This document shows positions 5,709-43,261 of a stretch of 64,000 nucleotides of DNA, one piece after another. The stretch is taken from sequence record MF158043; one strand, given 5' to 3'. Every line of letters starts with the position of its first letter. Position 1 is the stretch's first letter. This DNA comes from Shigella phage Sf16. Under the pieces are notes generated by a model. It saw only the letters and a list, made by a program, of their open reading frames with translations, did not search any database and had not been told where the DNA came from. The position numbers were made by a program, and so were the translations under genes.

Positions 5709-7061
5709 ATGTGGAATCCAATTGTTAATGTAGATATTACATTGAACACAGCAGGAACTACAAGAGAAGGTTTTGGTTTACCATTATTCCTTGCTTCAAC
5801 AGATAACTTTGAAGAAAGAATCCGTGGTTACACTTCATTAACAGAAGTAGCCGAAGACTTTGATGAAAGTACTGCTGCGTATAAAGCTGCAAAACAGCTA
5901 TGGAGCCAAACTCCAAAAGTAACTCAACTGTATATTGGTAGAAGAACTATGCAATATACTGTTTCTATTCCTGATACAGTGGCTGAAGGAAGTGAATATT
6001 CATTGACAGTTGCTATCGGTGGTGGTGTTTCTCAGCCATTCCAATACACTGCAAAAGAAAATGACACAGCACTTATTGTCTTGAATGAGTTTAAATCACA
6101 GATTGAAGCAAGCCCAACAATTAAAGATGGTGTTAATGCTAGTGTAACAGGTACTGGTGCTTCTGCGACGATGATTATTACTAAAGCTGGTGATAATGAC
6201 TTCGTAAAAGTAACGTCCATTACACCTACAACGTCTATTGCAGCAACAACTGCTGACACGGCTTCCGCTGCTCTGGCATCCATTGAAACATATTCAACAG
6301 ATTGGTACTTCATCTCAGCAGAAGACAGAACTCAACAGTTTGTCTTGGCAATGGCTTCAGAGATTCAGGCGCGTAAGAAGATTTTCTTCACAGCTAATGC
6401 TGACGTTAAGGCTCTGCAAGGCACTGATTTGACCTCTGCAACAGATGTTCCGGCACAGTTAGCTAAGAGCAAGTACACTCGTACAGTTTGCTTGTGGCAT
6501 CACACAGCCGAGTTTGACTACCCAGAAATGGCTTACATCGCATATGGTGCCCCATATGATGCAGGCTCAATTGCTTGGGGTAACGCCCAATTAACTGGTG
6601 TTGCAGCATCTCTACAACCTGCTAACCAGAGACCACTGATAAGCATTCAGAAGTCAGCTTTAGACACTCGTAGCTGTAACTTCATTGACCTCGATGGTGG
6701 GGTTCCTGTAGTGCGCAGAGGTATCACTTCTGGTGGTGAATGGATTGATATTGTACGTGGTGTTGATTGGCTTGAATCTGATTTGAAAACATCTCTGAGA
6801 GACTTGCTAATTAATCAGAAGGGTGGTAAGATTACTTATGATGATACTGGTATTACCCGTATTCGTCAGGTCATTGAAACATCTCTTCAGCGAGCAGTTA
6901 ACAGAAAATTTTTGTCAACTTACACCGTTACTGTTCCTAAAGCCTCACAAGTTGCATTGGCAGATAAGAAAGCACGTATCCTGAAAGACATTACCTTCCA
7001 CGGTATTCTTGCAGGGGCTATCTTGGATGTTGACTTGAAAGGCACAGTGGCTTACGAATAA
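5709..7061 (+). CDS. tail sheath protein
   Basis: 450-aa ORF directly followed by a small tube-size ORF and a strong terminator; size and order typical of contractile tails. Confidence 0.5.
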   Translation: MWNPIVNVDITLNTAGTTREGFGLPLFLASTDNFEERIRGYTSLTEVAEDFDESTAAYKAAKQLWSQTPKVTQLYIGRRTMQYTVSIPDTVAEGSEYSLTVAIGGGVSQPFQYTAKENDTALIVLNEFKSQIEASPTIKDGVNASVTGTGASATMIITKAGDNDFVKVTSITPTTSIAATTADTASAALASIETYSTDWYFISAEDRTQQFVLAMASEIQARKKIFFTANADVKALQGTDLTSATDVPAQLAKSKYTRTVCLWHHTAEFDYPEMAYIAYGAPYDAGSIAWGNAQLTGVAASLQPANQRPLISIQKSALDTRSCNFIDLDGGVPVVRRGITSGGEWIDIVRGVDWLESDLKTSLRDLLINQKGGKITYDDTGITRIRQVIETSLQRAVNRKFLSTYTVTVPKASQVALADKKARILKDITFHGILAGAILDVDLKGTVAYE

Positions 7062-7075
7062 AGGAGTAATTAGGA

Positions 7076-7522
7076 ATGGCTATGTATCAGCAATATTCCC
7101 CTAAAGATGTAGTTTGTAGCTGGAATGGCATTGCCATTGAAGGTTTTGCACCAGACTCATTCTTGCGTCTTCAGAGAACTTCTCCACTTGTTACGCCAGT
7201 TGTAGGTGCAGGTGGTCAAGTAGCTCTGACAAGAAATGCAGACAAGACAGGTACGATTGAGATTGAGCTAATGCAGACTTCTCTATCAAACCAGATGCTT
7301 TCTGCAATTCAAGCTAAACAAGATGACATGGAACTTGAAGAAGATATCTCATCTAACTTTGTAATTTACGACCCATCTGGTTCAGTTCTGGCAACAGGTA
7401 TTAATGCTTGGTTGCAAGAGCTTCCACAGATTGAATTAGGTCGTGACCAGAACTCGAAAACTTGGATTTTCGGTTGTGAGAAGTTAGACTACACTTCAAC
7501 AATCCCTGCGTCAAGCGTTTAA
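7076..7522 (+). CDS. tail tube protein
   Basis: 148-aa ORF after sheath gene, followed by a terminator. Confidence 0.5.
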   Translation: MAMYQQYSPKDVVCSWNGIAIEGFAPDSFLRLQRTSPLVTPVVGAGGQVALTRNADKTGTIEIELMQTSLSNQMLSAIQAKQDDMELEEDISSNFVIYDPSGSVLATGINAWLQELPQIELGRDQNSKTWIFGCEKLDYTSTIPASSV

Positions 7523-7535
7523 CAAATCCTAATAA

Positions 7536-7570
7536 GGGGGAGACTGTAAAAGGTCTTCCCCTTTTGTGTT
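7536..7570 (+). terminator. rho-independent terminator after tail tube gene
   Basis: GGGGGAGACU-guaaaa-GGUCUUCCCC hairpin followed by UUUUGUGUUUUU. Confidence 0.6.
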
Positions 7571-7598
7571 TTTATAGCATAACTTTTAAGGAATCACA

Positions 7599-8000
7599 AT
7601 GAAGACTGAAACTAAAATGATTAACGGCAAGAAGGTAACTATTATTCTTCTTGGAGCAAGAGATGGTATCCGTATCTCTATGAAACTTGGTAAAGCAGTT
7701 GTACCAGCATTTGCACAGATGTTCTCTGGTTTAACCTCTAAAGATGGGGAAGCTAAAATCCCATTTAAAGAACTCGTTGAAGCTTGCTTTGAAAAGGTTG
7801 ACGAACTAGATATTGATGCAATGGCAGAGACACTATTTCAGGGGGCAACAGTTAACGACTTCCCACTGAAAATTGATAGTTACTTCCAAGCGAACTACGG
7901 TGAATTTATTGACTTCTTAGCTTTTGCTTTGGAGGCAAACTTCGGAAGTTTTTTCGAGGCAAGCATTTTCAAAAGCCTAACTTCTCAGCAGGAAGCTTAA
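7599..8000 (+). CDS. tail assembly chaperone (G-like)
   Basis: 133-aa ORF immediately upstream of tape measure gene. Confidence 0.5.
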   Translation: MKTETKMINGKKVTIILLGARDGIRISMKLGKAVVPAFAQMFSGLTSKDGEAKIPFKELVEACFEKVDELDIDAMAETLFQGATVNDFPLKIDSYFQANYGEFIDFLAFALEANFGSFFEASIFKSLTSQQEA

Positions 8001-8236
8001 GTTATTCTATGCAGACCCCGCTGACTGACGGGGCTGTAAAGGCAACTTATGATGAAGCAGATGAGATGAAATTTGTGCTTGCTATTTATGGTATGGATGG
8101 GTGTAAAGAAACACTCAACCAACTTTTTGATATGACCTTCGTTGATTTATTATCTCTACGTCAGTATTTAGAAATCCAGAAGTCATATAAAGAAGAAATG
8201 GCTTACAACGAACTCAGAAAAGCAGGTAAAATTTAA
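7599..8236 (+). CDS. tail assembly chaperone GT-like fusion via programmed -1 frameshift
   Basis: the -1 frame is open from 7880 to 8236, overlapping the 3-prime end of the G ORF; slippery heptamer T_TTT_TTC at 7949-7955 is in the zero frame. Confidence 0.45.
7949..7955 (+). promoter_or_regulatory. -1 ribosomal frameshift slippery site (UUUUUUC)
   Basis: X_XXY_YYZ heptamer in frame of the 7599 ORF, inside the two-frame overlap. Confidence 0.5.
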
Positions 8237-10472
8237 TGGCACAATATACAGTTGATAGTTTTATTGTTGAACTTGGATTCAGTGAAAAGGTTATTAAGGG
8301 TTTGCAAAGAGTTGAGAAAATGGCTATGCAGTCTGCTCAACGTATCGAACGCAATATCAATAAAGCCTTTGATGTGAAGCCTAATAGAAGTTCACAAGAC
8401 GCTCTAAACAGACTTGTAAAAAACGCTCAGACTGCTTCAGGCAGAATCAATAAATCCCTAAACAATGCTATGAATTTAGATTCACAAGGTGTAAAATCAC
8501 TTCGTAGATTAGAAACACAGGGTAAGAAAACAGCCAAAGAAATTAATAAGGCTCTAAGACAAGCTATGAATGTTGAAGGTAAAGTCAATGTTCGTGGTGG
8601 AGTTGGTAGAGGCCGTGGTAATACTATCCCTCCGGTTGGAGGTGGTGGTTCACCTAGAGTCAGACCTGATATTGCTCAAAGACAGATGGAAAGAATGTTT
8701 AACAACAACTTCTATTCTGGTTTGACTCGTCGTCTTGAAACAATTGGTGGACAAGGCAACCAAATGGCTACTTCCTTCAGAGGAAGCTTACAAGGAATCT
8801 ATAATAAGTACAAAGGTAGTGGTAAAGTTGGTGAGTATGAGATGGAAGTTAAGAAACTCATTGACACTACCAAACGTTGGGTTATTGCAGAAAATGCTAG
8901 ACTTAAGGCAGTCAGAGAGTCAGCTTGGTTACAAGACAGAGCAAACTCTTCACTAAGACAGCTTGTAGGTGGTTTTGTTTCAGCGTATGCTATGCTGGAA
9001 TTAGCTCAGAAGACTATTGATGCAGGTGTAAAGAGACAGTCTGCACAGTTAGCCTCAACAGCTATCTTTGGAGGGGATACACAGCAAGCGAGAATGTTCG
9101 CTGCTACGTTCTCTCACCAGATTGGTCAGAACTACACAGACACTATGAAGCAGTACTCAAACTTCGCTGCTGGTGCTCAACCAGAGTTAGGTTTCCAAGG
9201 GACTCAAGAGTTCTATAAGAATGCTGCTATGTTCTCACGTATTCGTGGTGCTTCTGATGAAGACTTGAAAGGTATCATGGTTGCTTTCCAGCAAATGGCA
9301 TCTAAAGGTAAGATTCAGGCTGAAGAACTTCGTGGACAGTTAGGTGACCGTTTGGCAGGTGCTGTTCAGTTATTCTCTGATGCTATTGGTAAAACTCCAC
9401 AAGAACTTGACAAGATGATGAAAGATGGTCAGCTTCTTGCAAAAGACGTTCTACCAAAAGTCTCAGAAAAAATGAGAGAGCTTGTTGAAGCAGCAGGTGG
9501 TATGAATGCAGTTTCTAAGCAGACAGCTACCTCTATGGGTCAAGCAAAGGCAATGTGGGATAACACCCTTGTAGCTTTGTTTAACAACTCTAGCGAAGGT
9601 ATCTCACAACTCTCTAACTCAGTTGCAATGTTCTTGCAAGGTTCCCTTGGTACATCTGAAGCACTTGGTACAGGTATTGGTTACCTTTTAAAAGGTGCTA
9701 GTAACCTTCTAGACTTCGTGACAGATATCATGTACCGCATTTCTTCATTATACTATACCTCAATGGGCTATTTCAAGGAATTAGATGCTAGTCAACAGAA
9801 ACTAATCAAGGATTCTGCTGAGTTAGTTGCTACGTTCACCGCTATTGGTGTCTCAATTGCAGCTATTACAAAAGTCGCTAAAATCTTTGGTGGTACTGTA
9901 GCATTTGTCAAGAGTATCTTTGAAGAAGGTATCTTAGCTAAGATTGCACAGAAGTTTGGATTAACTACAGCAGCAGAAACAGCAGCTACAACGGCTGGTG
10001 TATCAGCAACCAGAATGGCTCTTGGTGTAGGTGGTTCTGCATTAATGTTATCTGGTTCAGTTGACAAGAATGCTGGAAAGAGATTTAACGAGGTTAACAC
10101 ACCTAATCCTTTCAATGAAGCTATCTCAGGAATCACTAATCCAAAACGTCCAATGTTCTTTGACCAGAATGGACAACTTCAGTTTGCACAATATACCACA
10201 GACACTTCTGGAAATATTCAGAGAGTTGATAATGGTTTGTCAAATTGGGATATTATCATGAACAACCTGTCTGAGTCTCTAAATAACTTTGCAAACAAGT
10301 TTAACCAGACACCTATGATGATGACTCCTTCTGGACTACCATTGCAAACTAAGCAGACGCTTAACGTTTCCTTTAATCTGGATGGTAAGCAGATTGCTAC
10401 TAAGATGGTGGATATCACTGATAAGAGTCAGGAAGATATTCTGTTAAACTCTAGCTACCCAGAGGATGAATA

Positions 10473-10473
<1 letters not shown>
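8236..10473 (+). CDS. tail tape measure protein
   Basis: 745-aa ORF, coiled-coil-rich N-terminus, Gly-rich segments, hydrophobic central stretch; follows chaperone pair. Confidence 0.7.
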
Positions 10474-41673: not shown

Positions 41674-41949
41674 ATGCTAGATTTAATTCGCAATGCGAGA
41701 ATACGTAGTAAAGATAACTCACTATATTTATTTTATATTCCAAGACGGTCTTTGTATTATATTGCAGACTTAGACTTAAAAGTTAAGATGCCAGATGGTT
41801 CTTGGAAAGAACATATACGATATGTTGATTGTTTTAATCCAAAGCAAACATATGCAAGGCCACTTGATATGTTCAACAAGGACAAATGGGTTGTTATGAC
41901 AACAACTGAAGCCAGAAACTTTCTAGATACAGGAATCTTACCAGAATGA
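41674..41949 (+). CDS. hypothetical protein between nrdA and nrdB
   Basis: ATG 41674 with GGAG RBS; ORF ends overlapping nrdB start. Confidence 0.35.
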   Translation: MLDLIRNARIRSKDNSLYLFYIPRRSLYYIADLDLKVKMPDGSWKEHIRYVDCFNPKQTYARPLDMFNKDKWVVMTTTEARNFLDTGILPE

Positions 41950-43019
41950 TTAATCCACATCCAATTTTCTTAGGCGGTGAACGAAAAACTTTCGATTCAC
42001 TGAATAAACACTATCCAAAAATCTTTGAACTGTATAAGCAGCAGAAAGCACAAGACTGGTCTGAAGATGAGTTCCCATTTGAACAGTCACGTTTAGACTT
42101 TGAGAGTGTCCCTCAGTCAATGTCTGGTGTAATGCTTGAGATTCTGAAATGGCAATGGGAAGCAGATACACAGGTTGCTAAGAGTTTAGCTTTTGCATTT
42201 GCACCATTCATCTCTGATGATATCTATGCAACTGCTATCATGAAGCAATCAGAAATTGAGAACCTTCATGCACTAACTTATTCAGAGATTGTTCGTCAGT
42301 GTATCAAGAACCCTGAAACAATCCTTGATGAGATTAACCAGAACGCTGCTGTACAGGACAGATTGAAGACTGTGAACAGAGCACTGGCAGAATTACTTGA
42401 CGAAGGTATTAACTATCGTTTAAGCTATGTTTGTCAAGAGCTAATGGAGAAAGACCCTTTACACTTCCACAAAGTAATCTTAAAAGGTCTCTTTGCAGTA
42501 ACAGCACTTGAGGGTATTTCCTTCATGGCATCCTTTGCATGTACCTTTGCACTTGATGCACAAGATAAATTCCAAGGGATTGCACAAGCAGTACAGAAAA
42601 TTATGCTTGACGAAATCATTCACACAAAGATTGATATCGAAGCATTAAAAGAAACTTTGAAAGATGAAGAGTGGCAAGAAGCTTTCCGTCAAGTACTCCC
42701 AGAAATTAAAGTAATTCTGGATGAGGTAGTTGAAAGTGAAGAGAAATGGTCTTATTATATTTTCTCTGAAGGACGTGCTGTTGTAGGTTTAAATACAAAA
42801 CTTCTTCACGAATGGGTTTACTACAACGCTGCTCCATTGTATGATATGTTTGGTATTCCAAGAGACTTCGTAGCTCCTAAAGAACCACCTTTGAAATATA
42901 TGATTAAGAAGATGGAAATTGATAAAGAGCAAAACGCTAACCAAGAACAACAAAATGGTGCGTACCTTTTGAATACCGTTGTTGATGATTTAAATTCAGG
43001 ATTTTTAGAGGTTCCTTAA
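41946..43019 (+). CDS. nrdB: ribonucleotide reductase class Ia small subunit
   Basis: 357 aa, ferritin-like diiron protein size and position after nrdA. Confidence 0.85.
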   Translation: MINPHPIFLGGERKTFDSLNKHYPKIFELYKQQKAQDWSEDEFPFEQSRLDFESVPQSMSGVMLEILKWQWEADTQVAKSLAFAFAPFISDDIYATAIMKQSEIENLHALTYSEIVRQCIKNPETILDEINQNAAVQDRLKTVNRALAELLDEGINYRLSYVCQELMEKDPLHFHKVILKGLFAVTALEGISFMASFACTFALDAQDKFQGIAQAVQKIMLDEIIHTKIDIEALKETLKDEEWQEAFRQVLPEIKVILDEVVESEEKWSYYIFSEGRAVVGLNTKLLHEWVYYNAAPLYDMFGIPRDFVAPKEPPLKYMIKKMEIDKEQNANQEQQNGAYLLNTVVDDLNSGFLEVP

Positions 43020-43261
43020 TGACTTATGTAATTTACTCAAAAGATGGATGCCCACAGTGTGTGACTGCTAAGAACTTTGCTCAGGCTCGTGGCTTAGACC
43101 ATGTTGTTAGAATGCTTGGGAAAGATTATGAGCTAAGTGACCTGATGGATATTGCAAAGATACCTGTTCGTCAGATGCCTTTCATTATGAAGGTTGAAGA
43201 CAATGAAATGAAACCTGTTGGAACACTACAGAACTTTATGGCAGAGGTGAATAATGCTTAA
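43019..43261 (+). CDS. glutaredoxin-like protein (NrdH/NrdC-type)
   Basis: 80 aa with CPQC active-site motif. Confidence 0.55.
   Translation: MTYVIYSKDGCPQCVTAKNFAQARGLDHVVRMLGKDYELSDLMDIAKIPVRQMPFIMKVEDNEMKPVGTLQNFMAEVNNA

Follow-up and report, generated by a model that had tools for sequence, protein, structure and literature searches.

In the 64,000-nt stretch of Shigella phage DNA analysed here (the window), two short open reading frames (ORFs) lie in different frames directly ahead of the tape measure gene. The question that this locus raises is whether they are separate genes or a single gene read by programmed −1 frameshifting, as the initial annotation had claimed for what it called a tail assembly chaperone pair. 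Over positions 7000-8700, the locus shares 99.9% identity with Shigella phage Sf14 (MF327003 / NC_042075), a Felix O1-like myovirus of the genus Mooglevirus in the Ounavirinae, and a window coordinate equals the MF327003 coordinate minus 22226.

The ORF listing agrees with the initial annotation on the first ORF, which occupies 7599-8000 on the plus strand, encodes 133 aa in the zero frame and corresponds to Sf14 gp41; we refer to it as ORF1, the short tail assembly chaperone gene (TAC-N, the 'G' analogue). The second ORF, ORF2, lies in the −1 frame relative to ORF1 and appears there only from an internal ATG with a poorly placed Shine-Dalgarno (SD) sequence (8009-8236, plus strand, 75 aa), just as Sf14 gp42 is drawn in GenBank and RefSeq. 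Its stop codon shares the sequence TAATG with the start of the tape measure gene at 8236. The −1 frame had been said to be open from 7880, with an overlap of 120 nt, but this is wrong: TGA codons in the −1 frame of ORF1 at 7901-7903 and 7910-7912 mean that the frame opens only at 7913 and continues to 8236, so that the overlap with ORF1 measures 88 nt. The slippery heptamer T_TTT_TTC, reported at 7949-7955 (plus strand) in the zero frame, is where it was claimed to be and still falls within 7913-8000. It is phased AG[T TTT TTC], with codons TTT at 7950-7952 and TTC at 7953-7955 in phase with ORF1, and fits the canonical X_XXY_YYZ pattern. A −1 shift at this site would join ORF1 to an extension (the 'T' part) of 93 codons plus stop at 7955..8236 (plus strand), and the predicted fusion CDS, join(7599..7955,7955..8236), encodes 212 aa (119 from the N part and 93 from the T part).

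Pfam and PHROG matches place the pair in the order sheath, tube, chaperone pair, tape measure. The sheath gene (5709-7061; DUF3383, PHROG 205) is followed by the tail tube gene (7076..7522, plus strand; Pfam KPP10_Orf10, PHROG 280), whose product is named gp40 in Sf14 (PMC11821841). Downstream, the gene for the tape measure protein, the presumed chaperone client, spans 8236..10473 on the plus strand (Pfam TMP_3, E 1.2e-16; PHROG 4036 over its full length), which bears out the claim that the pair lies directly upstream of it. ORF1 itself matches Pfam PF21822 (Phage_TAC_15) over residues 9-122 of 133 with 72.2 bits (E 7.5e-20), above the curated gathering threshold of 22 bits, and also matches the tail assembly chaperone PHROGs 1613 and 3840. 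The profile phrog_4963 matches ORF2 (E 2.4e-51) and covers fusion residues 136-212, while phrog_3840 spans fusion residues 1-150, through the shift site, with E 4.9e-48; its match to ORF1 alone is weaker (E 4.1e-42).

Structure searches gave a more limited return. The fusion sequence had no significant match in the PDB (best E 0.48), and an AlphaFold model of ORF1 (window 7599-7997; pLDDT 82.5) retrieved nothing from the PDB with Foldseek at E ≤ 0.001. The sole PDB neighbour of the model was 5IR0, ORF19 of a Vibrio cholerae PICI-like element (PLE), which we rejected as a structural relative because the match is too weak (E 0.31, probability 0.93, TM 0.49/0.62); if the likeness were true, a phage satellite with a TAC-like protein would be of interest. 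Since the Foldseek match is too weak, the family assignment rests on Pfam and the PHROGs. All the proteins that a homologue search retrieved with the fusion as query were unfused, at about 132 aa; it was an exact-sequence look-up, not the homologue search, that recovered the deposited fusion of Citrobacter phage Moogle.

How much weight can the heptamer itself carry? In-phase XXXYYYZ heptamers (Y = A/T) number 45 in the window ORFs of at least 100 aa, so the heptamer count alone is weak evidence for frameshifting, and we dropped it as a stand-alone significance test because such heptamers are common. Among these 45, the heptamer at 7949-7955 alone is T_TTT_TTC, and no other is followed by a −1 extension as long as its 93 codons. 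TTTTTTC is also depleted in the window as a whole, with 12 occurrences on both strands against 27±5 expected from 100 dinucleotide-preserving shuffles, every one of which held at least 12. A second in-phase heptamer, T_TTA_AAT at 42989-42995 (plus strand), lies 10 codons before the stop of an ORF at 41946-43019 (357 aa), and the −1 frame from it continues for 88 codons through the next ORF, 43019-43261 (80 aa). This junction is probably an ordinary gene overlap, since an ATG at the upstream stop gives the downstream ORF a start of its own.

The support for frameshifting that we regard as decisive, as judged from sequence, is comparative. We assembled 72 loci that encode an ORF1 homologue, down to about 25% protein identity, from GenBank genomes (Mooglevirus, Felixounavirus, Suspvirus, Kolesnikvirus of Erwinia, Pectobacterium Arno18, Alteromonas Myoalterovirus and Pseudomonas Nankokuvirus) and from 60 IMG/VR contigs. 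At the homologous position, the peptide N-F-x-S-F-F is written AAY TTY NNN NNT TTT TTY in 70/72 loci; this is the unbiased figure for TAC-homologous loci, whereas a count of 61/61 for the motif is circular because the regular expression demanded the motif. The two exceptions, Pseudomonas phage G1 and the IMG/VR locus L068, retain a T5 run. Elsewhere in the same ORFs, the TTT:TTC count for Phe is 304:296, AGT accounts for 13% of Ser codons, and the Asn and Phe codons beside the slip site vary synonymously among loci. Since Phe codon usage is about 50:50 elsewhere and the neighbouring codons vary, the T-run is constrained at synonymous sites over roughly 14 lineages. The slip site is thus frozen at the nucleotide level, as NNT TTT TTY, across lineages sharing only about 25% protein identity. 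The run is T7 in marine lineages. In G1 (L012 1230-1245; TCG GTT TTT CAA) and L068 (GAC CTT TTT ACC), it sits one base out of register, and we treat these two as a non-canonical variant of the site because only the A-site tRNA-Phe re-pairs perfectly after a −1 slip.

The frame entered by the shift is conserved along with the site. Every one of the 60 IMG/VR loci has a −1 frame that is already open ahead of the T-run and stays open well beyond the end of ORF1; the +1 frame usually ends far earlier. Full-length loci have a post-shift part of 80-103 codons, and the post-shift parts of the lineages align as a single homologous domain. The first ATG in the −1 frame falls at codon 13, 17, 18, 35-37, 45 or 57-69, depending on the lineage, and four lineages (L061, L062, L067 and L070) have no −1-frame ATG at all. 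In the Erwinia phages, the conserved core of the T part sits upstream of the first ATG. In Erwinia phage phiEa104, a 57-codon stretch that lacks an ATG and is annotated in part as intergenic shares 41% identity with the Sf14 extension (E 7e-15). By blastn, only window positions 7938-7978, comprising the slip site and dual-coding stretch, match the Erwinia phages (90% identity). That dual-frame stretch (7955..8000, plus strand), which encodes the C-terminus of TAC-N and the fusion linker, forms an island of nucleotide conservation in both blastn and the alignment, and indels around it and the slip site come in threes.

A closer test case is Moogle, also a Mooglevirus, which has about 94% nucleotide identity across the locus and no differences between about 24 nt before the heptamer and 36 nt after it. 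When we built the fusion from T_TTT_TTC in Moogle, the resulting 212 aa were exactly those of the deposited protein AIW03804.1 / YP_009145710.1; the same sequence is also deposited as ARB06563.1, and an equivalent 212-aa entry exists for Michonne/Mordin. Moogle carries an annotated joined CDS, Salmonella phage Meda (Felixounavirus) annotates a 'frameshift product', likewise as a join, and a frameshift has been stated for Moogle (PMC4319497) and for Mijalis, another Citrobacter phage of the genus Mooglevirus (PMC5543628). The annotations in Moogle, Mijalis and Meda are bioinformatic, as is ours. Unlike the Moogle join, both Sf14 records (MF327003, NC_042075) hold two separate CDSs, and an exact look-up of the Sf14 fusion sequence did not find it in the protein collection.

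Together, the gene order, the protein families, the 70/72 loci and the exact Moogle match support the initial annotation's programmed −1 frameshift in a tail assembly chaperone pair, and we consider it highly probable that the two ORFs are one gene recoded by a G/GT-type shift. With the anatomy of the locus, the family membership and the deep conservation of site and frame observed directly, we infer slippage, its efficiency and the binding partners as follows. Most ribosomes would read 7599-8000 and release the 133-aa chaperone. In a minority, with one tRNA-Phe on UUU 7950-7952 in the P site and another on UUC 7953-7955 in the A site, the paired tRNAs would slip back by one base to UUU UUU, and these ribosomes would resume from C7955 in the −1 frame and stop at 8234-8236, yielding the 212-aa fusion. 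On the lambda model, the N part common to both products would coat the tape measure protein (8236-10473), recruitment of the tube protein (7076-7522) would fall to the T part, and the slip frequency would fix a low ratio of long to short product. Work on E. coli ranks U_UU.C second among −1 tetramers and finds that UUN codons are prone to shifting and that slippage is favoured when the X and Z bases are homogeneous (PMC4066793). A tRNA scan for a phage tRNA-Phe found zero tRNA genes in these 64 kb; by comparison, a published abstract credits Sf14 with 26 tRNAs, and the published paper on Sf14 tRNAs makes no mention of frameshifting.

Sequences around the heptamer were searched for elements that might stimulate the shift. 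The check for a downstream stimulatory structure proposed in the initial annotation was negative: the fold of 7956-8005 (−8.0 kcal/mol, z −0.07) and that of 7949-8040 (z −1.26) are no better than those of shuffled sequences, and Rfam gave zero matches over window 7000-9000. Since no stimulatory structure follows the heptamer, the efficiency of frameshifting may be low. On the other hand, five marine or GC-rich IMG/VR loci (L045, L050, L060, L061 and L067) have a sizeable hairpin 1-5 nt beyond the T-run (60-nt folds of −11 to −25 kcal/mol). Because the enterobacterial phages are without the hairpin of these lineages, stimulators may differ by lineage. Upstream of the heptamer, an SD-like GGAGG at 7931..7935 (plus strand) is separated from it by 13 nt and is a possible stimulator. 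In 14/19 lineage representatives, an SD-like site so placed is among the top 7% of ORF windows, a ranking confounded by conserved Leu-Glu-Ala coding. The site is sometimes formed by different codons (CTG GAG GCA, AGG GAG, AAG GAG, GTG GAG GTC) and is absent in L003, L043 and L065 (Erwinia phages and L065). A role for GGAGG as a dnaX-like stimulator that raises efficiency is plausible, with the candidate confounded by the conserved Glu. We found no report of an SD-like element as a stimulator for the Felix O1-like family, and no mention of an upstream SD-like element in the accessible text of PMC12846349.

A stable hairpin does occur further downstream, at 8006..8042 (plus strand), with a ΔG of −17.5 kcal/mol and a z of −3.83; 0/200 shuffles fold as well. 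Since it lies about 50 nt from the slip site, it is not a classical stimulator. It encloses ATG 8009 and may occlude this internal start. Its 5' arm starts at the annotated gp42 ATG 8009, and its stem reads CCCCG...CGGGG in Sf14, Moogle and Silverhawkium and CCCCA...TGGGG in pEC-M719, mistaenkt and EP1, a single G-C to A-U double change that separates Moogle-like from Susp-like phages. The hairpin is weaker in Felix O1.

The main alternative is that the two ORFs are what the GenBank and RefSeq records of Sf14 say they are, separate genes, with ORF2 translated alone from ATG 8009, perhaps by termination-reinitiation, and the heptamer incidental; in a weaker form, a standalone gp42 would exist beside the fusion. 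ATG 8009 is only 8 nt past the ORF1 stop, so some reinitiation is possible, and an ATG falls 2-14 nt from that stop in the sampled enterobacterial genera (Moogle-, Felix O1- and Susp-like). Furthermore, mass spectrometry of a pelleted Sf14 particle preparation detected gp42 and did not detect gp41 (Table 1 of the Sf14 cryo-EM paper, PMC11821841). However, the AGGAAG that would serve ATG 8009 lies about 13 nt from it; compared with most neighbouring genes, its anti-SD duplex is weaker (−4.3) and the SD-ATG spacing is longer, and the ATG itself sits within the stable hairpin described above. The ATG column is unconserved, lying 35-69 codons downstream in other lineages and missing in the four noted, and the Erwinia T-part core precedes any ATG from which it could be initiated. 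Even within Felixounavirus, an 87-kb IMG/VR contig (L035) has ATA in place of the ATG, at codon 14 after the slip site, and its next ATG is at codon 36. Separate genes would also leave the invariant NNT TTT TTY at synonymous sites unexplained. We therefore regard separate genes as unlikely: independent initiation at ATG 8009 is disfavoured, and possible as an additional route.

Two further explanations concern the T-run itself. If RNA polymerase added one U within the U6 run, normal translation of the altered transcript would give the same ...SFFR... junction, and the site is indeed a homopolymeric T6, or T7 in marine lineages. Because one inserted U should give an identical protein, mass spectrometry could not separate transcriptional from ribosomal slippage. 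Efficient transcriptional slippage in bacteria takes runs of about 8-9 or more A/T, though, and the run is only T6 here and T5-T7 in relatives, with T5 only in G1 and L068. The X_XXY_YYZ phase is also kept, with the wobble position of the codon ahead contributing the 5' T, an arrangement that tandem tRNA slippage needs. Transcriptional slippage is thus very unlikely. It is more improbable still that no recoding occurs at all, with the heptamer and the open −1 frame coinciding by chance and the −1 ORF upstream of 8009 never translated. The 45 in-phase heptamers would allow such a coincidence, and from the heptamer at 42989, too, the −1 frame leads on into the next gene. Yet site, frame and the protein sequence of the ATG-less stretch are conserved across lineages at 25-45% identity, and TTTTTTC is otherwise depleted in the window; judged by this conservation, pure coincidence is excluded.

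Programmed −1 frameshifting, the reading that we prefer, does not sit easily with the particle data. Since the gp41 sequence yields several good tryptic peptides, finding gp42 without gp41 in particles is odd if gp42 exists only within the fusion. A less conventional reading is that the −1 product is processed, or separately reinitiated at ATG 8009, and tail-associated. Independently of this, the SD-like element, 11-13 nt upstream and retained by most lineages despite codon differences, could be a conserved stimulator that pairs with rRNA. We consider these readings rather unlikely. The Sf14 particle spectra are deposited as MassIVE MSV000096931. The predicted fusion has the peptide IDSYFQANYGEFIDFLAFALEANFGSFFR across the frameshift junction, and the fusion-derived peptides that cross the annotated gp42 Met-8009 are HFQKPNFSAGSLSYSMQTPLTDGAVK and (HFQK)PNFSAGSLSYSMQTPLTDGAVK; if gp42 began at ATG 8009, its N-terminal peptide would be MQTPLTDGAVK. 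Our literature search found no published protein evidence for the fusion in Felix O1-like phages.

The arrangement resembles known recoded chaperone genes to different degrees. The lambda G/GT system was reportedly described by Levin in 1993 and by Xu, Hendrix and Duda in 2004, 2013 and 2014, and Christie et al. are said to have described E / E+E' of phage P2, with a −1 shift on a T-rich run, in 2002. P2 has a contractile tail, the order sheath, tube, chaperone pair, tape measure, and a T-run slip read by tRNA-Phe; we detected no sequence similarity to its E/E+E'. As in lambda, the overlapping ORF pair here lies directly 5' of the tape measure gene, the predicted −1 slip falls towards the 3' end of the first ORF, a strong stimulatory structure is absent, and the expected products are a short and a long chaperone (PMC5009743). 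Lambda differs in its non-contractile tail, its heptamer (G_GGA_AAG) and its TAC family, as ORF1 matches only Phage_TAC_15 and no lambda-type family. Neither lambda product is in virions, whereas Sf14 gp42 is reported in the particle preparation; because the T part was found in particles and the N part was not, gp42 might differ from the lambda paradigm, a reading that we consider rather unlikely. Stimulated signals of the E. coli dnaX, IS911 and IS3 type combine a slippery heptamer with an SD-like element placed 10-14 nt ahead of it, for which GGAGG, at 13 nt, is a candidate counterpart confounded by coding; their stable hairpin or pseudoknot 5-9 nt past the heptamer has no evident counterpart at this locus. 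For T4-like TACs, Vladimirov et al. (2022) gave an alternative mechanism of separate short and long genes, according to PRFect (PMC10885494); this mechanism does not apply at this locus.

Among closer relatives, the 2025 paper on Pseudomonas phage Adele (PMC12846349) reports a conserved GTTTTT motif and an uninterrupted −1 frame, across divergent genera, in the TAC genes of 159 Vandenendeviridae and 231 Andersonviridae genomes. Felix O1-like phages are explicitly covered as a family there, with the annotation of Moogle cited, and the T-run that it describes is the same one near the 3' end of TAC-N. Pseudomonas phage G1 has the phase G_GTT_TTT, with A-site re-pairing only, whereas the Sf14 site is the fully canonical T_TTT_TTC. 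The frameshift is thus already known for both genus and family, and our result is an annotation fix that does not change what is known of tail assembly or recoding. In MF327003, Sf14 gp41 and gp42 should become gp41 plus a gp41-42 fusion (29825..30181,30181..30462). The correction matters because Sf14 is a structural and therapy-related model phage.

We also noted a feature between the tube and chaperone genes, at window 7534-7573 (plus strand), where an intrinsic-terminator-like hairpin with a 12-bp stem (AAGGGGGAGAC...GTCTTCCCCTT) is followed by TTGTGTTTTT. The record of phage Meda annotates a terminator at the equivalent position. A terminator here would leave the chaperone and tape measure genes less transcribed than the sheath and tube genes.
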